The notes beneath the pieces were generated by a model that saw only the letters and a program-made list of their open reading frames with translations, was not told where the DNA came from and made no database searches. Source: Limnochordia bacterium (GTDB taxonomy: Bacteria > Bacillota > Limnochordia > DTU080). From it: 64,000 nt of DNA. The stretch is taken from NCBI GenBank assembly GCA_050951545.1, contig JBMNJG010000005.1, forward strand, positions 192,001 through 256,000. Direction: 5' to 3'. How positions within the stretch are numbered: position 1 is the first letter of the stretch; every line of letters starts with the position of its first letter. Below are positions 17,949 through 28,027 of the stretch, piece by piece. Position numbers and translations under genes: made by a program.

Positions 17949-20900
17949 CTACCGCACAGTGAAGTAGACGCACTGTGGATGATGGAAAACGATCGCGCTG
18001 ATCGAAGCTGCGGGATCCATCATTAGGGTCTCCGTGAGCTCAACCCCGATCTCTTCTGGCTGAAGTAGACGAAAGAGGTCCTTCTGCAAAGCGAGATCTG
18101 GACAGGCGGCATGGCCAAAGGAGTACCTACGTCCCCGGTAATGCCCCTGCAAGATCCGCTGTGTGGGTAGTGCCGGGTCATCTGGAAATCCCCACCAGCC
18201 GCGCATTCGGGCGTGTAGCCACTCCGCCGCTGCCTCTGCGGTCTCGATGGCCAGCGCCTGAAGTACATGACTGCGAAGGTAGTCCCCCTGCTCTTTGAGC
18301 CTCTCCGCCTCACGGGCGATCCCATGGCCGGCGGTAACCACGAAAAGGCACACACTGTCGCGGCTGTCACTCGTAACTGGTAGGGTGTAATCAGCCAAAC
18401 ACAAGCCCCGCTTGGCGTGCTGACGGGGAAACACCCACTCTGCGAGTACATCCCCGTTTTCAGGATGATACAGAATCAGGCAATCGCCTCTGCTAGCAGC
18501 GGGGAAATACTGCCAGACCGCACTGGCCCGCATCAACCCCTGGCGGCACTCGGCCTGCACCTCCTCAACCAACGCCCGCAGCATGTGGGCCCGCTCATCT
18601 TGGGCAGCCCAAGCCCGGTGCACTGGTGTCTTCAGCCCTAAGTGATGATTGTAGAGACTAATTGGATTCATGTAACCCCAGACACTATCCAGGTCGATGG
18701 CGGTCAACACATGTCTGTCGAAATCGGCCGGCTCGGGCACCGCGCTCGGCATGGATACTGCAGAAAGCTGCTGTGGTGCCGCGGCTGTGAACTCCCTACT
18801 CCCTAATGGCGACAGCTGAGCCGCCTCTTGCACCAACTGATCCACCAACACCTGGCGCTGGTCAGAATCCATAATCTGGTTGGCCAGCGCCAAACCATGC
18901 ATCACATCGCTGGCGTAGGCAACCAGACCCCCATAGGCAGGAGCGATCCTCTTGTGGGTAAAGCTCTGAGTGAGCGCCGCTCCGCCAACCAGCATCGGCG
19001 GACACAGGCCTGCTCGTGTGAGCTCCTCTGCGGTCACTACCATCTGTTGCGCCGATCGCACTAAGAGCCCCGACAGGCCTATAAGGTCCGGTTGGTGCTC
19101 CCGAACCGCTTTGACGAGCTCCGCTGGTGCCACCTTCGTCCCGAGATCGATGATGCGGTAGCCACTGTTTCCGAGAACCATTTCCACCAGATTCTTGCCG
19201 ATATCATGCACGTCTCCCTGTACGGTAGCCAGGATCACGGTTCCCTTGGTCATCAGAGCCGTCTGATCGATGCGAGACTCCAGATAGGCGACGGCGGCCT
19301 TCATGACCTCCGCGCTCTGCAACACCTCGGTAACGATCAGCTCATTGCGGTTAAACAACCGCCCGACTTCATTCATGCCCTCCATCAAAGGTCCGTTGAC
19401 GATCTCAAGGGGCGATGCCTCCTCAAGCTTCAGAGCCAGATCATCAACCAGCCCATTCTTGCTACCCTCAACGACATGCCTGGTCAGTCGCTCATCAAGG
19501 CTGAGTTGTGGGGTCGGAGGCGCCGTGCTCCTGACGTCCCGATAGTGCGCAGCAAACGTGCCGATTGTCTCGTCATCCGGACAAAAGAGCACCTTGAGTG
19601 CCAGGTCTCTCTCACGGGCGGAAAGACTTGCATAGCGCCTCAGTCGTTCGGTGTTCACAATGGCCAGGTCAAGACCCGCTTCCGTACACTCGTAGAGGAA
19701 CACAGAGTTCAGCACTTCACGCGCTCCAGGGGGTAGACCAAACGACACGTTACTTATCCCGAGCAGCGTCTTGCATGTCGGCAGAGCCTTCTTGATCAGG
19801 CGTAGCCCCTCAATTGTTTCCCGTACCGAGCCGACGTACTCCTTATCACCGGTGGCACACGGGAACACCAAGGGGTCCATAATGATGTCCGTGGGCCGCA
19901 TGCCGTACTTCACCACTAAGATCTCGTAGGCGCGCAGAGCGATCTCCAACTTGCGCTGCCGAGATACGGCCATGCCGCCTTCGTCAATCAGCCCCACGAC
20001 CAGGGCAGCCCCGTAGCGCCGGACAAGCGGAACCACCTCGTCAATGCGACGCTCGCCGGCCTCCAGATTCACCGAGTTGATAATTGCTTTCCCCTGACAG
20101 AACGTCAATGCAGGCTCAATCACCCGAGGGTCCGTGGAGTCGATCATGAGGGGCGCCCTCACCTGGCGAATGACATTGGAGAGAAGAGCCTCCATATCCT
20201 GACGCTCATCGCGGTCAGGATCACTCACGCAGATATCGAGGATCTGGGCTCCGCTGCGCTCCTGCCGCCGCGCCACTTCAGCTGCTTCCTCGTACTGGGC
20301 CTCGTGAATCAGACGGCGGAACTGACGCGAACCGATTACATTGGCCCGCTCACCAACCAGCACGGGCCGGTTACTCTCGCCGATCTCCAGATTGTCGATC
20401 CCGGAGACGAAAGTTGCAGTGATAGCCTTTGGGGTGCGTGGCGAGTAACCACTCACTGTCTCGACCAGAGCCCGAATGTGCTCCGAAGTCGTGCCGCAGC
20501 ACCCGCCCACGACGTTGAGCCAGCCTTGCTGAGCAAAGCGTTCAACCGCTCTCGCCATATGATGAGGCGTCTCGCCATAGTGTCCGTCCTCATCAGGCAT
20601 TCCCGCATTGGGCACACACGCCACCGCCACCGCGGCCCGCTCAGCCATCACTCGCAAGTGATCTGCCATCTGCTCCGGCCCGGTGGCGCAGTTGAGCCCG
20701 AGATACAGCAGATCTACATGCTCGAGACTTGTGATCAAGGCCTCCATATCTTGGCCAGCCAGCATGGTCCCCCCAGGCTCGATGGTGACCGAGACGGCTA
20801 CCGGAATAGGCCTGCCCCACTCCTGGGAGAGCTGCTCGATGCCCACCAACCCCGCCTTTATATTCCGCGTGTCTTGGCATGTCTCTAATAGAAGATAGTC

Positions 20901-21389
20901 AACGCCCCCATCAACCAGAGCTCGTGCCTGTTCCCGGAAAGCACGAACAAGCTGATCGAAACGAACCCCCCCTGTTACGGAGATAGCCTTGGTGGTTGGC
21001 CCCATAGACCCTGCTACAAAGCGAAGCTTGCCCGATGTGCTGTAGCGATCAGCCGCTTTTCGAGCGAGCCTGGCTGCTTCATAGGTAAGGGCGTAGGCTT
21101 GATCTGCGAGCTCGTACTCCGCCAAGACGAGGGAGCTGGATCCGAAGCTGTTGGTCTCGATGATATCAGCGCCTGCCCGCAGATAGCCCTCATGGATGGC
21201 CAGGATCACATCGGAGCGAGTTCTGACCAAGTGCTCGTGGCACCCCTCGTAGCGAGGGTCTCCAAAATCAGCGGCAGACAGGCCTCGTTGCTGAATCGCA
21301 GTGCCCATGGCCCCGTCGAGAACCAAGATCCGTTCCTGCAGCGCCCGACGAAAACGCTCGACCCGGTGATCCTGACTCGCCATGCTCAT
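17949..21389 (-). CDS. metH: Cobalamin-dependent methionine synthase
   Basis: LDGAMGT, GGCCG, pterin-binding domain, DVHDIGKN..SGLL B12 motif, activation domain RYSFG. Confidence 0.95.
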   Translation of the reverse strand: MSMASQDHRVERFRRALQERILVLDGAMGTAIQQRGLSAADFGDPRYEGCHEHLVRTRSDVILAIHEGYLRAGADIIETNSFGSSSLVLAEYELADQAYALTYEAARLARKAADRYSTSGKLRFVAGSMGPTTKAISVTGGVRFDQLVRAFREQARALVDGGVDYLLLETCQDTRNIKAGLVGIEQLSQEWGRPIPVAVSVTIEPGGTMLAGQDMEALITSLEHVDLLYLGLNCATGPEQMADHLRVMAERAAVAVACVPNAGMPDEDGHYGETPHHMARAVERFAQQGWLNVVGGCCGTTSEHIRALVETVSGYSPRTPKAITATFVSGIDNLEIGESNRPVLVGERANVIGSRQFRRLIHEAQYEEAAEVARRQERSGAQILDICVSDPDRDERQDMEALLSNVIRQVRAPLMIDSTDPRVIEPALTFCQGKAIINSVNLEAGERRIDEVVPLVRRYGAALVVGLIDEGGMAVSRQRKLEIALRAYEILVVKYGMRPTDIIMDPLVFPCATGDKEYVGSVRETIEGLRLIKKALPTCKTLLGISNVSFGLPPGAREVLNSVFLYECTEAGLDLAIVNTERLRRYASLSARERDLALKVLFCPDDETIGTFAAHYRDVRSTAPPTPQLSLDERLTRHVVEGSKNGLVDDLALKLEEASPLEIVNGPLMEGMNEVGRLFNRNELIVTEVLQSAEVMKAAVAYLESRIDQTALMTKGTVILATVQGDVHDIGKNLVEMVLGNSGYRIIDLGTKVAPAELVKAVREHQPDLIGLSGLLVRSAQQMVVTAEELTRAGLCPPMLVGGAALTQSFTHKRIAPAYGGLVAYASDVMHGLALANQIMDSDQRQVLVDQLVQEAAQLSPLGSREFTAAAPQQLSAVSMPSAVPEPADFDRHVLTAIDLDSVWGYMNPISLYNHHLGLKTPVHRAWAAQDERAHMLRALVEEVQAECRQGLMRASAVWQYFPAASRGDCLILYHPENGDVLAEWVFPRQHAKRGLCLADYTLPVTSDSRDSVCLFVVTAGHGIAREAERLKEQGDYLRSHVLQALAIETAEAAAEWLHARMRGWWGFPDDPALPTQRILQGHYRGRRYSFGHAACPDLALQKDLFRLLQPEEIGVELTETLMMDPAASISAIVFHHPQCVYFTVR

Positions 21390-23437
21390 TTGCCCACCTC
21401 ATCGCCTGATGACCGTACGTGCTGACGAACCTGCTCCACGAACGTGCAGATAGGCTCATGCTTGCCAAAAGAGAGCACCACGTAGATCCCGGCAATAAGC
21501 GAGCTGGCCTGCGTCACGAGTTCAGCGGCTTGCGTGAGGCCGACCCTGAGTCCATCGTCCCCGGCGAGTTCAAGCTCGCGGCGGATGGCCTCCGGCACAG
21601 TGATCCCGGGGACCTCATTGTGAAGGTAGACCGCATGCCTGTAGCTGTGGAGAGGCATCACTCCCAGCAAGATAGGCACATCGCAGCCCCCAATCTCATC
21701 CAAGACCCGATGCAACGGGGCCAGATCATAGACGGGTTGCGTCATCACAAACTGAGCCCCGGCTGCCAACTTCCGGCGAAAACGATCTGTCTCACGCGCC
21801 AGATCGTCAGCGTTCGGGTTCAGAGCACAGCCTACTGCGAAGTCCGTGGCCTGCCCAGTCGGGTTGCTAAGCAGGTCACGTCCAGCGTTGAGTTCGGTAA
21901 GCACACGGATAAGACCGATGGCGTCCACATCATATACCGGCGTTGCCTGCGTGACATTGCCCAACGATGGCGGATCGCCAGTCAACGCCAGTATATTGCG
22001 CAACCCCAAAGCATGGGCGCCCAGCAAATCGGATTGCAGCCCCATCAGATTGCGGTCCCGCGTTGTCAGATGCACAATGGTTTCCACGCCAACTCCATGC
22101 TCAATGAGATGCGCACTGGCCATGGCGCCCATCCGCACCCGGGCCATCGGACTATCTGCCACATTGATGCAGTCAACACTAGCAGCCTTGAGCGCTGTGG
22201 CAGCTTCGAGGAACTTCTTGGTCACCGAACCCTTGGGAGGATCCAACTCGACACTGATGACAAACTCACGGCCTAGGTTGGCCCGCAACCCTCGATCAGC
22301 TGCCCGGGGAGTAGCTTCCGTAACCTCCTCCACAGGACGAACCCGCGGGCGAAGAGGGCTCGTACCCTGACCAGCGGGGGCTGCCATCTTCCTCTCCAAC
22401 TTGACGCTTGGCGATACGGCCTTCGACGCCCCGACTGCGTCGCCGTTGGTGCTGTTGGTTTGCCGCGCGTCGAGATACTCTCTCATGGCTGCGATGTGCT
22501 CCGGTGTCGTGCCGCAGCAGCCGCCAATCAAGCGTACACCCCGACTGATGAACCCCTCCATCATCGCTGCGAAGTACTCCGGTGTGGCTGAGTAGAGCAC
22601 GCGGCCGTCTACGTATGCTGGCAGACCAGCGTTGGGCATGGCAGACCACATGACAGGGAACGTGATGCTTTCCTGCAGCGTCTCCAATGCCTCCACCACG
22701 TGGACAGGACCGCTGCTGCAGTTGACACCGATCACATCAGGGTAGGCCGCAGGATCCAAGTCGTTTAGGGCGGCCGCCACGCCCTGCGGCGTATACCCAG
22801 CGGCGGTGGCCTGCCTCACACCATTACCCAGACCCGGCAGATTACGGGGAGCACCATCTGGCCAGAAGGCGAATTGCACAACGATGGGCAGTTTGGAGAT
22901 CTCACGAGCAGCTCGAATGGCCTCACTCGCCTCCACGGGATCTGCCATAGTCTCGATAACGAAAAGATCGACACCACCGGCAAGCAAAGCCTCCATCTGT
23001 TCTCGGAAAAGAGCGCGCATCTCTCGCCGTCCCATTGTGCCCGCTACGCCAATTGGTAAACCTAGAGAGCCCACTGATCCCGCCACCAGGGCGGCCTCAC
23101 CAGCTATCTCGCGCGCTGCTCGAGCAATCTTAGCACCCCACACATTGATATCCCACACCCGCTCCTCCTGACCGCATTTCTGCAGTCTGATCCGGTTAGC
23201 ACCATAGGTGTTGGTCTCAATCAAGGATGCTCCGGCCTGCAGATAGTCCAGATGCGCCTTCTGGACTATCTCCCGATCTGATAGATTCAGACACTCAAAG
23301 GATCTCGCCGCCCGGTCACCTCGCTCGTGAAGCAAGGAACCCATGCCGCCATCAGCCAACAAGACCTCCCCCTGCAGACGTGAGAGGAATGCGCGCACAG
23401 CGGAAGGGACATCCGCTCTGCCAGTAAGTGGAGCCAT
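21386..23437 (-). CDS. Bifunctional homocysteine S-methyltransferase / methylenetetrahydrofolate reductase (YitJ/SamT-like)
   Basis: DGGMG, GVNC, GGCCGT, then ISVELDPP, HLTTRDRN, LTGDP, TQPVY; 4-nt overlap with metH. Confidence 0.9.
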   Translation of the reverse strand: MAPLTGRADVPSAVRAFLSRLQGEVLLADGGMGSLLHERGDRAARSFECLNLSDREIVQKAHLDYLQAGASLIETNTYGANRIRLQKCGQEERVWDINVWGAKIARAAREIAGEAALVAGSVGSLGLPIGVAGTMGRREMRALFREQMEALLAGGVDLFVIETMADPVEASEAIRAAREISKLPIVVQFAFWPDGAPRNLPGLGNGVRQATAAGYTPQGVAAALNDLDPAAYPDVIGVNCSSGPVHVVEALETLQESITFPVMWSAMPNAGLPAYVDGRVLYSATPEYFAAMMEGFISRGVRLIGGCCGTTPEHIAAMREYLDARQTNSTNGDAVGASKAVSPSVKLERKMAAPAGQGTSPLRPRVRPVEEVTEATPRAADRGLRANLGREFVISVELDPPKGSVTKKFLEAATALKAASVDCINVADSPMARVRMGAMASAHLIEHGVGVETIVHLTTRDRNLMGLQSDLLGAHALGLRNILALTGDPPSLGNVTQATPVYDVDAIGLIRVLTELNAGRDLLSNPTGQATDFAVGCALNPNADDLARETDRFRRKLAAGAQFVMTQPVYDLAPLHRVLDEIGGCDVPILLGVMPLHSYRHAVYLHNEVPGITVPEAIRRELELAGDDGLRVGLTQAAELVTQASSLIAGIYVVLSFGKHEPICTFVEQVRQHVRSSGDEVGK

Positions 23438-23706
23438 CTCGCCAAATCCCTTCTAGTCTTACGGCTTCGTTCACAATGGAATCAGCCTGCGGATAATGAT
23501 AATGATCAGCCAACTTCAACACCACAGCGGCGATCACCTTTTCCAGAGCACAGTAGCATCACCAAGAACGAACGTGACCATTCCATGGTGCCCCACAAGA
23601 GGCGCAGGGGGTGACCGACACCCGCAATGAGTGGGTTGACTGCTTCGGGAAGCTGGCCGAGCAGTCGGCTGCCAGCGAAACGCAGGTCTGAAGATCCGGG
23701 CAGACA

Positions 23707-23821
23707 GAACCAGTGAGCATCGACCGCTTCTTACCGAATTGGGTGATGTAACCGGTGTGTGCACGGGTCTGCTTTGGCAGGACGGCACTGGTCACCGCTG
23801 CGGGCTAGCGCTGTCCTACCC
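23707..23821 (+). repeat. Diverged direct-repeat copy (left) of the 25301-25621 repeat family
   Basis: GAGCATCGaCCgCTTCTTaCCGAaTTGGGtgATGTAACCG...CGGGCTAGCGC..CCTACCC is shared with 25509-25621. Confidence 0.75.
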
Positions 23822-23909
23822 AGATGCGCCCATCACGACCGGAAAACGTGCCATCGCGCCTCGCTTGGAAGAGCTCGGTGCACGCCGCCTCTGGTTTTGT
23901 CTGAATCGA

Positions 23910-25079
23910 CCTTTTGGTGAAGGAACCCTACCGGAGAGTGTCGAACATGTATTCGGGACCCGAACAGACATTCTGGCTGGAGGTGGCACCCTTGGATATC
24001 GAAGAGGTTCGCGTGCCGATCTCGTTGCTGCTCACTAGCCAGTTAAGAGCGACGGATAAGGTAGTTTGGCTGGCTCTCACACTCGACGCTGAATTGGGGC
24101 AGCGAGCCCGTCTGTCGCCCACTCGCCTCGCTGCTCGTACCGGTTTGTCCCGACCCACCATCCGCAAGGCTACGGCAAAGCTAACCACTGAGGGCTGGTA
24201 CAATCTGCCCACAGGCGTCAACCGGGCCCCAGCAAAAGGGCTGTCGGGGCCAAGGGTGGTCATGCCTACTGAGCTGATCATCGCCACGGAGGTCAGTGCT
24301 CAGGCCAAGGTGGTCTATGGTGCACTGCAGGCCACGCCGGATTACCGTAATTTGCAGGGCGTGTTCACATATGCATCTGTGGCCCGGATGATGAGTCTAG
24401 ACGCCAAGACGGTCAAGCGGGCCGCTCGACAGCTGGCCAAGCTGGGCTGGCTGGAGACGCAGCAGGAGCACAAGCAAGCTCCCATTTGCTTCAGCCTCTG
24501 CAACCCGGTCGCCCGCAGGTACATGGATGAACTGCTAGCGGCGCAGCAGCGACTCGACGAGGCTGAGTTCTTCGGACAGACCTTGATGCAGGAATACCTA
24601 TCGGCTATTTTCGACTCCGATGACCATAAGGACAACGCGTCTCCCCGTTTTCTAGTCAACCCGGCTACTGGCATGTTACTGGAGCTCGACCGCCACTATG
24701 ACCTCGAGGCCGTGGCCTTTGAGTTTAACGGGCCACAACACTACACCCCTACCAAACGGTTCTCGGCTGACGTGGTCGCCAAGCAGATGGAACGTGACAA
24801 GACCAAGCGTGAATTGTGTGAGGAGAACAAAGTCACGTTGGTTGTGATCCATGCCAAGGACCTGTCCTGGCTCACCATGAAGTTCAAGGCTGGCCAACTG
24901 CTGCCGTTGCGAAGCGACCTTAACAAGAAACTCCTCAGGTACCTCGATCTGAGGAGTCGCTTCTACCGCGAGACGGCTAAGGGTGGCTGGGCGCCCACCA
25001 GTGACGCCGCCAACGAATAGCCAACGACGGCCAAGAGTGCGCTATAGCCTCGAATCATCTCTCCCCCTTCACCAAAAGG
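23910..25079 (+). mobile_element. Candidate IS-like/selfish element bounded by 14-bp inverted repeats
   Basis: CCTTTTGGTGAAGG (23910-23923) and CCTTCACCAAAAGG (25066-25079) bracket a single nuclease ORF. Confidence 0.5.
23947..25020 (+). CDS. Tandem winged-HTH protein with a C-terminal Vsr/DUF559/EDxHD-like endonuclease domain
   Basis: Two internal repeats (VP..LL....L....KVVW/Y..L...S...LA...GLS..TI/V......L...GW); tail 'LELDRHY..AVAFEFNGPQHY...QMERDKTKRELCEENKVTLVVI'. Confidence 0.7.
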   Translation: MYSGPEQTFWLEVAPLDIEEVRVPISLLLTSQLRATDKVVWLALTLDAELGQRARLSPTRLAARTGLSRPTIRKATAKLTTEGWYNLPTGVNRAPAKGLSGPRVVMPTELIIATEVSAQAKVVYGALQATPDYRNLQGVFTYASVARMMSLDAKTVKRAARQLAKLGWLETQQEHKQAPICFSLCNPVARRYMDELLAAQQRLDEAEFFGQTLMQEYLSAIFDSDDHKDNASPRFLVNPATGMLLELDRHYDLEAVAFEFNGPQHYTPTKRFSADVVAKQMERDKTKRELCEENKVTLVVIHAKDLSWLTMKFKAGQLLPLRSDLNKKLLRYLDLRSRFYRETAKGGWAPTSDAANE

Positions 25080-25300
25080 GGTCTCAGCAACCTCTCGCTG
25101 CCGCTCGCTGAAGCGGGTGCCCCTATGCCCTCGCCCAGGTGCCCTCGCGACGAGTCGTGACAATAGCAGACCCGTGGTGCGCCAACGGGCGCTGCGCTTC
25201 CTGCTGTAACCGCCTCGAAATCACAATGTTGCGCCCAATAGCCATCTTGCCTTGCCCAGAACCCGCCTCGTCGCCTGGTCCACTTCCTGTGATCGAAGAT

Positions 25301-25561
25301 GAAACTGGAGCATCGCCCTCTTCTTGCCGATTTGGGCAATGTAACCGACCCCGGGCCCCGACCCGGGCCCCGACTCACCAGCCGGGTCCGGGACTGACGG
25401 AAGTGAAACTGGAGCATCGCCCTCTTCTTGCCGATTTGGGCAATGTAACCGACCCCGGGCCCCGACCCGGGCCCCGACTCACCAGCCGGGTCCGCGACTG
25501 ACGGAAGTGAAACCGAGTGGGCATCGCCCCCTTCTTGCCAAATCAGGCGATGTAACCGACC
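25301..25561 (+). repeat. 104-bp tandem repeat (2 near-identical units plus 1 diverged partial)
   Basis: Units start at 25301, 25405 and 25509; the first two contain an internal (ACCCGGGCCCCG)x2-like duplication. Confidence 0.9.
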
Positions 25562-25801
25562 TGTGTATCGCCCACGACGAGCCTGGGCATCGACACACGA
25601 CGGGCTAGCGCGGCCCTACCCCGACCCAACTGATCACAGTCGGTGCAAACCCTAGCATGGAGGAAGACCACAGTCAGAATCCTAGTCATACTTGAAATGA
25701 ACTGGTGGGGCCTTTCCAAAGGCGGCGCAACAGCGATACGCGAATTCTCGTCACCGTATTCGCCCGTATTCCCCCGTGTTCACGCCGACGAGTATTCGCG
25801 G

Positions 25802-25830
25802 TTGCGTGGCTCGAGGGATAGTGCTATAAT
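25802..25830 (+). promoter_or_regulatory. SigA-type promoter for tRNA-Arg
   Basis: TTGCGT-N17-TATAAT with an extended TG. Confidence 0.7.
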
Positions 25831-25843
25831 GTGAAAGCGGTAG

Positions 25844-25920
25844 GCGCTCGTAGCTCAGCTGGATAGAGTGCTTGACTACGAATCAAGAGGCCAGAGGTTC
25901 GAGTCCTCTCGGGCGCACCA
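25844..25920 (+). tRNA. tRNA-Arg (anticodon ACG)
   Basis: Cloverleaf, anticodon loop CTACGAA, GGTTCGAGTCC, encoded CCA. Confidence 0.97.
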
Positions 25921-25921
25921 G

Positions 25922-25970
25922 CAAGAAACACCTCCACGAAGCGGTTTTCGGGAGGTGTTTCTTGTTTGTT
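25922..25970 (+). terminator. Intrinsic terminator after tRNA-Arg
   Basis: CAAGAAACACCTCC...GGAGGTGTTTCTTG plus a T-rich tail. Confidence 0.85.
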
Positions 25971-26317
25971 GGGGGTTGGGGAAGGGCGGTTTTGTAGCCA
26001 ATGTGTAGCCAACAGGTTCTGCCACGAAGGCTAGGGTATGTACCAAGGCGGTTGTCGAGCAGTCGGGTCGACGCGTCGAACCCGAACCTAGATGCAGCCG
26101 CACACTAATCTATCTGTAGCTTGCGTAATAAGGGACGCTTTGGTGAATATCCATAAAAAGAAACAGGAAAATCCTTCTAGGGTGTGGTAATACTATCCGG
26201 ACATTGAAGCCGCCTACTCGGATGTCCCAGTTACCCGCGGAGATGTGCGCTTGGTCGCGCTAAGCAACAAGAGGTATCCATGTCGATGATGCCACGCCTT
26301 GAATATCAGGGAGGTCC

Positions 26318-27346
26318 TTGATCATGAAAGAGAAAGCTGACCTCGTTCTAGAAGGAGGCGGGGTCAAAGCCATCGCCTTAGTAGGAGCCCTCAACTACGC
26401 CGAATCACAGGGGTACCACTGGAACAACATAGCCGGTACCTCAGCCGGGGCTCTCGTCGGTGCACTCCTAGTAGCTGGGTACTCAGGTAACGCCCTGAAA
26501 GACATGGTGCTCAATATGGATTTCACCGCCCTGTGCGACAAGCGCCTTATCCAACGTCTGCCTGTCGTAGGTCCGGCGGCTGCTGTGGGTCTCTACATGG
26601 GCCTGTGTCGCGGGCAAGCGCTCGAGACGTGGATCCGTGACATACTACTCAACAAGGGCGTGCGTACGTTCGGGGATCTAAAGGTGTATGATGAGCACAA
26701 TCCGCGCTACCGCTATCGCCTGCAAGTCATCGCCTCAGATCTCACACGCGGCCGCATGCTGGTACTGCCCGACGACATGAGGGCCTACGGGCTTAATCCC
26801 GACCAAATGGAGGTGGCCCAAGCCATACGCATGAGCACAAGTATCCCTTTCTTCTACGAGCCCGTTGTGCTGCGTTACGGCAGACTACACAACAAGAGCA
26901 GCTACGTCGTTGACGGCGGCGTACTCAGCAACTACCCTGTCTGGCTCTTCGACTGCCCCCAGTACCGGGCGCCTCGCTGGCCTACCATCGGACTGCGACT
27001 CGTCGACCCGCGAGCAGCACACCCCAACAAAATCAGAGGGCCGTTATCCTTGCTTACGGCCCTGTTCTCAACCATGCTAGAAGCGCATGACGCCCGCCAC
27101 GTCAAAGAGGCCAACTTCGTGCGCACTGTTGCGATAAATACCCTCGGTGTGCGAACCGTCGATTTCGGCATTCCGACAGCCACCCGTCTGCGACTGTATG
27201 ATTCCGGCGTCTCGGCAGCACGAACCTTCCTCAAGACTTGGGACTTCGAGACCTACAAGAACCGCTACAGGCTTCCCCAAACACTAACTACTTTCTCTCG
27301 GGCAGAACGTACTCCGACAACGAGAACAGCGCACCTGCTGCCCTAG
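26318..27346 (+). CDS. Patatin-like phospholipase
   Basis: GGGVK, GTSAG, DGG motifs. Confidence 0.92.
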   Translation: MIMKEKADLVLEGGGVKAIALVGALNYAESQGYHWNNIAGTSAGALVGALLVAGYSGNALKDMVLNMDFTALCDKRLIQRLPVVGPAAAVGLYMGLCRGQALETWIRDILLNKGVRTFGDLKVYDEHNPRYRYRLQVIASDLTRGRMLVLPDDMRAYGLNPDQMEVAQAIRMSTSIPFFYEPVVLRYGRLHNKSSYVVDGGVLSNYPVWLFDCPQYRAPRWPTIGLRLVDPRAAHPNKIRGPLSLLTALFSTMLEAHDARHVKEANFVRTVAINTLGVRTVDFGIPTATRLRLYDSGVSAARTFLKTWDFETYKNRYRLPQTLTTFSRAERTPTTRTAHLLP

Positions 27347-28027
27347 TAGATCCTCCGGCACATCATACTCCTGCTGACAATGAGGACAGACGCTCTTTTT
27401 GGGTGACAAGCCAGGCGAGTACTTGCGCCCAGGATACAACACGACGGTCGACCGCGGTGCCACAAAAGAGGCCCGGACCAGTCCTACCTCGGCCACTGGT
27501 TCTTCCTGGCTCTCCTTGCCCAACACCGTCTCAGCCAACCGCCGCCCTTCACTGAGCGCCAGTGACCATATTTTCTTGACCTCTTCGACTAGAATAGGTC
27601 GCCCAGCCCGTTTCTGGTCAAAGTAGTACTCCGCAATACGTCCTATAGCATAGCTAGACGCAAACACCAGGGGGGCCGCCATGAGCCCTCCCGCGGTTGG
27701 AAGACCCAGCTTATAGAGACTAGCCATCCCATGTTGGGCAAGTAACCCCAAACCGACCATGCCACCGAGTTCCTTCAGGATATCTTCCGCTTGCTTCTTG
27801 CTGATAGGGAATCCCTTTATTTCGCCTATTTTGGCGGCCATGAATACCTGTACAGGGGTGTGTACCAGCACGTCAACAAAAGGGAGCGGCTGAATGGCAA
27901 GCCCCGCGCATACTGCTGCCGTAAGAAAGATCACCCTTTGCACCCGTGCAGCCTCAGCCAAACGAGGGTCATCACTCTCACGCAGTTGGGCTTCAAAGGT
28001 TCTTCGCAGCTCGTCGGCCCGTCGCAT
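27284..28027 (-). CDS. DUF697/YcjF-like membrane protein with a C-terminal zinc finger
   Basis: 'QPLPFVD...Q..M..KIG' DUF697-like core; tail CPHC...VRCSRC (MJ0042-type finger). Confidence 0.65.
   Translation of the reverse strand: MRRADELRRTFEAQLRESDDPRLAEAARVQRVIFLTAAVCAGLAIQPLPFVDVLVHTPVQVFMAAKIGEIKGFPISKKQAEDILKELGGMVGLGLLAQHGMASLYKLGLPTAGGLMAAPLVFASSYAIGRIAEYYFDQKRAGRPILVEEVKKIWSLALSEGRRLAETVLGKESQEEPVAEVGLVRASFVAPRSTVVLYPGRKYSPGLSPKKSVCPHCQQEYDVPEDLLGQQVRCSRCRSTFCPRESS

Follow-up and report, generated by a model that had tools for sequence, protein, structure and literature searches.

IS4/Tn5-like and ISLre2 insertion sequences (ISs) make 9-bp duplications of their targets, and homing endonucleases are not known to have terminal repeats or to generate a target duplication. 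Homing endonucleases of the EDxHD (Vsr-like) type, as an excerpt of PMC3239194 sets out, reside in introns or inteins or are free-standing in phages, where they cleave the cognate empty allele, with homologous repair following. The element considered here was found in a 64,000-nt stretch of a Limnochordia bacterium genome (the window; G000:C5:192001-256000, from a source genome, G000, of 3.64 Mb in 16 contigs that is 94% complete), where it lies between a yitJ-like gene and the promoter of a tRNA-Arg gene and carries a single open reading frame (ORF). The nuclease domain of its product belongs to the Vsr/EDxHD fold group, yet the element is unlike a homing endonuclease gene in behaviour; it behaves like an insertion sequence but without a known transposase class. 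The reading that we favour, at a probability of roughly 0.55, is that it belongs to a family of IS-like transposons, as yet undescribed, that carry a nuclease of homing type, are targeted to sites upstream of promoters and occur in Bacillota of the Limnochordia/Symbiobacteriia type.

The ORF encodes 367 amino acids (aa) from a GTG at 23917 or 357 from an ATG at 23947. The shorter form is the one that an earlier note on this DNA had described; the GTG is the likelier start, since the codon at 23917 is ATG in five of six other copies and that at 23947 is ATT in two. As the same note had proposed, and as domain, fold and sequence searches bear out, the protein is predicted to consist of two N-terminal winged helices followed by a C-terminal Vsr/EDxHD-type (PD-(D/E)xK-derived) nuclease domain. 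Pfam and NCBIfam detect only helix-turn-helix (HTH) families, at residues 33-84 and 138-183, and a sequence-profile search of PDB chains returned only HTH regulators; PHROG replication-initiator families match the N-terminal half (E 4e-9 to 1e-6), and PHROG homing/intron-endonuclease families match residues 256-303. AlphaFold, given an alignment of 39 homologues, modelled the whole protein with a predicted local distance difference test score (pLDDT) of 88 and C-terminal residues 195-357 (163 residues) alone with one of 93.6. Among 48,161 chains compared with this C-terminal domain by an exhaustive structural aligner, the best matches were Vsr (1cw0_A; Z 8.4, root-mean-square deviation (rmsd) 3.1, 106 residues aligned) and the catalytic domain of I-Bth0305I (3r3p_B; Z 8.4, rmsd 3.0, 94 of 98 residues aligned), with further matches to NGO0050 (3hrl; Z 7.8) and TnsA (1t0f_A; Z 6.6 over 109 residues). 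Foldseek gave nothing at E <= 0.001 for either the whole protein or the C-terminal domain, and the ESM Atlas offered only sub-0.9 leads, to phage DUF559-like proteins.

Searching phage records with tblastn gave matches limited to the nuclease domain, among them one at E 8e-6 to gp194, annotated as a "homing nuclease", of Bacillus phage 0305phi8-36 (in pairwise alignment 39 of 123 positions are identical, or 32%, E 1e-13), a phage that also encodes I-Bth0305I. Across 39 homologues, residues D248, E259, H265, D284 and K287 do not vary, and conservation reaches at least 90% at N261 and E211; with the exception of K287, these family residues align with identical residues of gp194. The composite catalytic motif of I-Bth0305I is made up of Glu170, Asp196, Asn208, His213 and Asp222 (PMC3239194, excerpt), and the conserved residues of the family come in the order of these catalytic residues, an equivalence drawn from order and spacing and not from superposition. 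We infer that the winged-helix/nuclease protein is catalytic. No DDE/RNase H-like, DEDD, HUH, serine or tyrosine recombinase domain was found by Pfam, NCBIfam or fold searches, in agreement with the earlier note, which had seen no DDE, HUH, Tyr or Ser motif, and PADLOC defence models gave 0 families at E <= 0.01.

The N-terminal half of the protein aligns with the iteron-bound Pi initiator (2nra_C; Z 8.0, 164 residues) and has a weak likeness to RepE54 (TM-score 0.46, normalised to the target). What the family has in common with RepE of mini-F and Pi of R6K, at these weak scores, is two tandem winged helices together with neighbouring direct repeats that bear a motif. The iterons of replication initiators are about 20 nt long, whereas the internal tandem arrays of the family are built of units of 94-403 nt; the family also differs in its fused nuclease domain and in consisting of chromosomal insertions rather than replicons.

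A six-frame search of the genome found the protein at 28 near-full-length loci, which fall into four subfamilies, A to D, and which bear out the earlier reading of it as a selfish element, one present in many copies. Subfamily A, to which the window copy belongs, has seven loci at 96-97% aa identity, one of them frameshifted, and subfamily D has two, at about 50% identity; the remaining 19 loci, at 44-49% identity (21 with D, at 44-51%), divide by DNA similarity into 15 of subfamily B (two frameshifted) and four of subfamily C. The ratio of nonsynonymous to synonymous substitution rates (dN/dS) is 0.20 in A (6 copies), 0.13 in B (13 copies) and 0.24 in C (4 copies), so the family is both multi-copy and under purifying selection. 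Every array unit contains a direct copy of the motif CA(C/T)(A/G)TAACC, and in subfamilies A, B and C so do both flanks of the ORF. One subfamily C copy lies within some 18-25 kb that are duplicated between contigs C8 (487-18787) and C9 (61618-80123), which may be a segmental duplication or redundancy of the assembly.

Subfamily B, whose protein is 48% identical to that of the window, is the best preserved and has terminal inverted repeats and 9-bp target duplications, the classical features of an IS. Its elements, 1.9-4.1 kb long, consist of a left terminus (GGGGCCACGCAAAAAACTGCGG...), one to six tandem units of about 403 nt, the ORF, a tail and a right terminus (...CGCGATTTCACGTGTGCACCC), the two termini being imperfect inverted repeats that match at 18 of 30 positions in a hand alignment; no second conserved ORF was seen inside them. 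A matrix made from the B termini finds 32 sites in the genome, all of them in elements of the family or their remnants. Among the eight B elements with both termini, five are flanked by perfect 9-bp duplications, each of differing sequence, and one by a duplication matching at 8 of 9 positions, and a 1.9-kb derivative that has lost the ORF retains a duplication as well. Several B copies have, as their right part, a segment of about 440 nt with end-like termini of its own. This segment (C7:457714-458150; C16:2098-2332) lies 17-18 nt after an inner right-end-like site of the B elements, an arrangement that points to a miniature derivative inserted in tandem, with the composite moving by its outer ends. 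On contig C11 (1461-3232) an ISLre2-like element with a UPF0236 transposase lies 8 nt from a solitary B left terminus, and the pair looks like an IS nested into an element or like a rearrangement.

In being short one-gene elements with imperfect terminal repeats, a fixed duplication length, many copies and ORF-less derivatives, the members of the family resemble IS4/Tn5-like and ISLre2 elements; they differ from them in having no known transposase class, in their internal arrays and in their fixed distance to -35 boxes. ISLre2-like, IS1634-like, Tn5-like, IS66 and IS3 elements also occur in the genome, and no termini shared with an autonomous IS were found among the three types whose ends were read, those of the ISLre2-like, IS1634-like and Tn5-like elements being unrelated. 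The Tn5-like transposase (Tnp_DNA_bind, Dimer_Tnp_Tn5; C7:472074-474203 and C9:13381-15120, in at least 3 copies) has an N-terminal region that matches the DruA family of Druantia (PF14236, E 5e-32). TnsA of Tn7, which works at transposon ends, depends for its action on the DDE protein TnsB and on TnsC. Its likeness to the nuclease domain lies in the restriction-endonuclease-like fold and is weaker than that of Vsr and I-Bth0305I; no TnsB/TnsC-type partners are conserved beside the family gene, and a B element is a single gene between ends.

The targets of subfamily B are varied 9-mers, and what they have in common is a fixed distance to the -35 box of a promoter. In all eight complete B elements a TTGAnn-N16-18-TAnnnT pattern occurs on exactly one flank, and its -35 box starts 16 nt from the end of the element (the 9 duplicated bases plus 7) in seven of them and 11 nt in the eighth, the distance for the copy on contig C3 being counted from the end that its duplication defines. 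It is the right end that faces the promoter in five elements and the left in three. At random sites TTGA[AC] occurs at that offset in 0.29% of cases, and together with a -10 box in 0.009%; the genome holds 338 full -35/-10 patterns in all. Of the 51 tRNA genes in the genome, some have an element 34-90 nt upstream, as is the case for six of the 28 elements, and when five other target flanks were tested, two proved to run into T-box leaders and one into a thiamine pyrophosphate (TPP) riboswitch. The promoters at B target sites are functional ones (tRNA, T-box and TPP leaders), and subfamily B inserts, in either orientation, with one end 16 nt upstream of the TTGAC-type -35 box of such a promoter. 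No description of -35-linked targeting by a bacterial element, or of an element such as this one, was found in the open-access full-text literature. A left-truncated B copy at C7:431541-435471 splits the gene for an ATP-binding cassette (ABC) transporter ATPase between LSGGE and KQRVAIARV, on the opposite strand, with no codon lost and no duplication; TTGACG stands in the coding sequence 16 nt from its right end, with no -10 box.

The yeast elements Ty1/Ty3 and the Dictyostelium TRE retrotransposons insert upstream of strongly transcribed genes, tRNA genes above all, at a short distance that is fixed; they spare coding sequence in this way and are guided by RNA polymerase III factors. These are eukaryotic retroelements, whereas the present family is a bacterial DNA element at sigma-70-type promoters. 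The EDxHD homing endonucleases (I-Bth0305I, phage Hef-type nucleases and gp194) are alike in their catalytic fold and in their acidic and histidine residues. The family is set apart from them by its 28 dispersed copies on the chromosome, by terminal inverted repeats with 9-bp duplications, by its tandem arrays and by two winged helices instead of NUMOD motifs. Homing would place its members in introns or inteins or beside a cognate target; the sites are varied, and the sole copy within a gene sits on the opposite strand. With I-Bth0305I the likeness extends to an N-terminal DNA-binding region joined to a C-terminal nuclease (PMC3239194, excerpt).

The window copy is a subfamily A member with an intact ORF that stands before the promoter of tRNA-Arg (Table 1). 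When the seven A copies are aligned with their flanks, they have DNA in common from about 23707 to the tandem array and past it; on the left, a boundary that starts with GGG can be placed at about 23698, and the unit there contains the conserved motif GATGTAACCG. The right end is tentatively put at GTGTTCACGC, which ends at 25785, 16 nt before the TTGCGT-17-TATAAT of the tRNA-Arg promoter, and which resembles the B right terminus GTGTGCACCC at 8 of 10 positions by eye; the assignment is tentative because the B-terminus matrix gave no match there. That promoter was not listed by a stricter consensus scan, since its -35 box matches at only 3 of 6 positions. In the copy on contig C16, ...CCGTATGCACTC stands 16 nt before the TTGCAG-17-TATAAT of a tRNA-Arg(CCG) gene, and in the copy on contig C4 the end of the array stands 16 nt before TTGACA-17-TATGCT, so that three of the seven A copies agree with the 16-nt rule on their right side. 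The earlier note had set the element between a met operon leader and tRNA-Arg: the tRNA gene is there, with the anticodon ACG, and the leader remains putative, no S-adenosylmethionine (SAM) riboswitch or T-box having been detected with Rfam (E <= 1) in the 260 nt from yitJ to the element. A search of 20000-28000 likewise gave no Rfam family other than tRNA. Upstream of the element, on the minus strand at 17949-23437, lie a metH-like gene (1146 aa) and the yitJ-like gene (683 aa), which overlap by 4 nt; the yitJ-like product is a homocysteine methyltransferase plus methylenetetrahydrofolate reductase (MTHFR).

Table 1. The window copy of the element and its surroundings (positions are those of the window).
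Feature	Position	Strand	Basis or remark
Left terminal repeat unit of the subfamily A element	23698-23821	+	genome blastn, seven-copy alignment, unit alignment
Left arm of a second, longer inverted repeat around the ORF	23762-23783		in 4 of 7 copies
Left arm of the perfect 14-bp inverted repeat	23910-23923		overlaps the start codon; not kept in paralogues
Sole ORF of the element (two winged helices and predicted Vsr/EDxHD-type nuclease)	23917-25020	+	
Right arm of the perfect 14-bp inverted repeat	25066-25079		not kept in paralogues
Right arm of the second inverted repeat	25154-25176		in all 7 copies
Tandem array of 104-nt units	25295-25561	+	2.5 copies in the window; most other copies have more units
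Last, diverged unit	25509-25621	+	right direct repeat of the earlier note
Post-array segment, candidate right end of the element	25622-25785	+	common with the C16 copy up to 25734
Candidate 9-bp target CGACGAGTA	25786-25794		adjoins the candidate right end; without partner at the left boundary
tRNA-Arg promoter	25802-25830	+	-35 TTGCGT 25802-25807, 17-nt spacer, TG-extended -10 TATAAT 25825-25830
tRNA-Arg (ACG)	25844-25920	+	element sits before its promoter

The earlier note had drawn the ends of the element elsewhere, at a perfect 14-bp inverted repeat, CCTTTTGGTGAAGG / CCTTCACCAAAAGG, that tightly brackets the ORF, and had seen the whole as nested within direct repeats of about 115 bp, its repeat family being the target into which it homes. 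The inverted repeat is present exactly as described, and is only mildly unusual, given that the window holds three perfect inverted repeats of at least 14 nt within 1500 nt against a mean of 0.37 (maximum 2) in 30 block-shuffles. In the six other A copies, which are 96-97% identical, the two arms vary independently and with no compensating changes, so that complementarity is retained at none of these loci, and copy-to-copy similarity runs on past the repeat, leftwards for about 200 nt and rightwards for more than 450 nt; the repeat is thus internal to the region that the copies have in common, and its perfection is an accident of the window copy. A second inverted repeat brackets the ORF, with about 22 of 23 nt matching; in the copy on contig C13 a matching change is found in both arms, and in that on C16 in one arm only.

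The direct repeats, at 23707-23821 and 25509-25621, are likewise real (86 identical positions in 123 alignment columns; alignment score 39 against -13 +/- 5, maximum 8, in 500 shuffles). They do not form a standalone pair and are the outer members of one repeat family, since the array of 104-nt units, each carrying GCATCG..CTTCTTGCC..ATGTAACCG and present in differing numbers among the A copies, sits between the ORF and the right repeat. Each occurrence of the 104-nt unit is next to one of the seven subfamily A ORFs, so that there is no pool of empty repeat targets; homing into the repeat family finds no support. That no target-site duplication is evident holds for the window copy. The core idea of the earlier note survives, since homologues are multi-copy and scattered over non-syntenic places, sister copies have gene-level empty sites and the C-terminal domain has a nuclease fold; the proposed ends and target do not. 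A structured RNA was also considered for the repeat unit and rejected: RNAalifold, run on 26 of 33 units, yields just a 5-bp hairpin with a covariation term of -0.45 kcal/mol, in which one sequence has a two-sided change.

Neither of two genomes of the same genus (G001 and G002) has a homologue, and at two B loci the sequences that flank the element are 220-352 nt apart in both of them versus 3.3-4.3 kb in the source genome; the T-box promoter beside one of these empty sites is conserved in all three. At the window locus the interval from yitJ to tRNA-Arg holds other genes in G001, where the tRNA gene is inverted, and in G002 the two flanks are on two contigs. More widely, 14 of 41 related genomes (the source genome included) have matches, several of them with 5-13. 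The protein clusters number 107 at 90% identity, named only "HTH domain-containing" or "ArsR family", and at E <= 1e-30 there are 403 representatives, the best 150 of which are all 233-544 aa long; the named records are mostly from Symbiobacteriaceae, Limnochordia, Thermaerobacter and Fermentithermobacillaceae metagenome-assembled genomes (MAGs). Further matches come from MAGs that bear the labels Mycobacterium leprae, Bacteroidota, Ignavibacteriales and Promethearchaeota (L063, L080, L084, L087, L110, L113 and L114), those from Promethearchaeota being confined to the nuclease core (residues ~210-301). Mis-binning may account for these matches, or the nuclease domain may be more widely spread. 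Across 36 loci in other genomes no neighbouring gene is conserved, any one being common to 5 of the 36 at most. Tandem arrays with a period of at least 40 nt occur within 3 kb of the ORF at 9 of these 36 loci (once inside the ORF), and at 3 of 13 loci in G009, a genome from a different family of the same order; in the latter a 241-nt tandem array of 9.6 copies lies directly downstream of a diverged member (G009:C12, L134 4893-7211).

Several points weigh against the transposon reading. The matrix of three terminus types gives no match of at least 7 bits within 1.5-1.8 kb of any of the seven A copies; no terminal inverted repeats were found in subfamily A, its repeats being direct and the resemblance of its right end to that of B having been judged by eye; and there is no 9-mer partner at the left boundary of the window copy, nor was a duplication found for any A copy. 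The window insertion is fixed in four metagenomes, in which contigs run into the element from either flank and none joins the flanks without it (the element is several-fold deeper than the flanks, as a repeat should be). Even in subfamily B, two of the eight complete elements are without a duplication, and several copies are truncated on the left at varied points, again without one. The ends, the duplication and the target rule all rest on one genome, because copies elsewhere are too diverged: in five other assemblies and in G009 the copies have only the ORF in common or are 75-83% identical, and no termini or duplications could be defined. Nucleases of the PD-(D/E)xK/Vsr type are known as hydrolases and not as strand-transfer enzymes, which leaves the origin of a fixed 9-bp duplication unexplained. 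Position 211 is Glu in at least 90% of homologues and Gln in the window protein; its counterpart in I-Bth0305I is a Glu that may be catalytic (PMC3239194, excerpt).

In its strongest form the transposon reading is that these are a new class of prokaryotic transposon, in which the sole Vsr/EDxHD-fold, two-winged-helix protein is a transposase in its own right, which works without a DDE, HUH, serine or tyrosine enzyme, assembles on iteron-like arrays, reads -35 boxes directly or by way of sigma factor/RNA polymerase and inserts the element 16 bp upstream of them. We put this forward tentatively, as having somewhat less than an even chance. In the reading that we favour, the winged helices would bind the repeated motif and the ends of the element, much as iteron-binding initiators bind their repeats, and the -35-linked choice of target would be made by the same protein or by promoter-bound RNA polymerase holoenzyme. 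The nuclease domain would cut the element ends and make a 9-bp staggered cut in the target, and joining might be carried out by the same protein or by host repair.

The main rival to the transposon reading is mobilisation in trans by a conventional transposase: the element would be a non-autonomous cassette whose ends are moved by an ordinary (for instance DDE) transposase, with the winged-helix/nuclease gene as a passenger, whether as a regulator, as an addiction or exclusion nuclease, or as a target selector like the accessory proteins of larger transposons. Terminal inverted repeats with 9-bp duplications are a DDE-type signature, the Tn5-like and ISLre2-like elements in this genome belong to families that make duplications of this length, ORF-less derivatives have the same ends as the complete elements, and with the assembly 94% complete a transposase that acts in trans and has matching ends may be missing from it, which again counts against the transposon reading. 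The GGGGCCACGC.../...GTGTGCACCC ends of the family are, however, unrelated to those of the ISLre2-like, IS1634-like and Tn5-like elements, and all 32 strong matches to the terminus matrix fall within its own elements or remnants; the ORF is also intact and under purifying selection in the 23 copies analysed, and the family is multi-copy in several other genomes without a conserved neighbour. We consider the cassette unlikely, though by no means negligible.

The position of the copies directly upstream of promoters, the database names "ArsR family" and "HTH domain-containing" and the restriction of Pfam matches to HTH would all suit a set of host transcription regulators, with the repeats as operator arrays and promoter proximity as a matter of regulation rather than insertion. 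Target duplications, terminal repeats, empty sites and the copy inside the ABC ATPase gene nevertheless show insertion, the predicted nuclease domain has conserved residues of catalytic type, and the distribution is patchy, with the family absent from both genomes of the same genus, so that this explanation is very improbable. Slightly less probable still are remnants of integrated plasmid or phage replicons, in which a Rep-like initiator with two winged helices beside its iterons would have been multiplied by duplication: the PHROG initiator matches to the N-terminal half, the weak structural likeness to iteron-bound RepE54 and Pi and the tandem repeats adjoining the gene can be cited for it, and against it stand the dispersal of 28 copies over unrelated sites, with their terminal repeats and target duplications, the lack of any homologue in 72,556 plasmid records, phage matches that cover the nuclease domain only, and the lack of conserved plasmid or phage genes alongside. 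The least credible of the alternatives is the model of the earlier note, an ORF within 14-bp inverted-repeat ends, nested in direct repeats and homing into its own repeat family. It can appeal to an inverted repeat that is perfect and tight around the ORF, to a nuclease domain of homing-endonuclease type and to direct copies of the unit motif that always flank the ORF; it is contradicted by the loss of the inverted repeat from all six other copies, by similarity between copies that extends beyond it on both sides and by a 104-nt unit that never occurs apart from the ORF.

Whichever enzyme is responsible, the target rule is undescribed for bacterial elements as far as our searches of the open-access literature show, and it offers a directly testable model of promoter-guided integration and possibly a tool for placing DNA beside promoters. 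About 400 clusters of the family carry the label "HTH/ArsR transcriptional regulator", and this calls for caution with that annotation. If the strongest form of the transposon reading is true, insertion 16 bp upstream of -35 boxes would be a "safe-harbour" strategy comparable to that of Ty3 at tRNA genes, in bacteria. If the protein is the mobility enzyme, the fold of a mismatch-repair and intron-homing nuclease would join the short list of transposase chemistries, and would bring with it the question of how a hydrolytic nuclease gives rise to a fixed 9-bp duplication.

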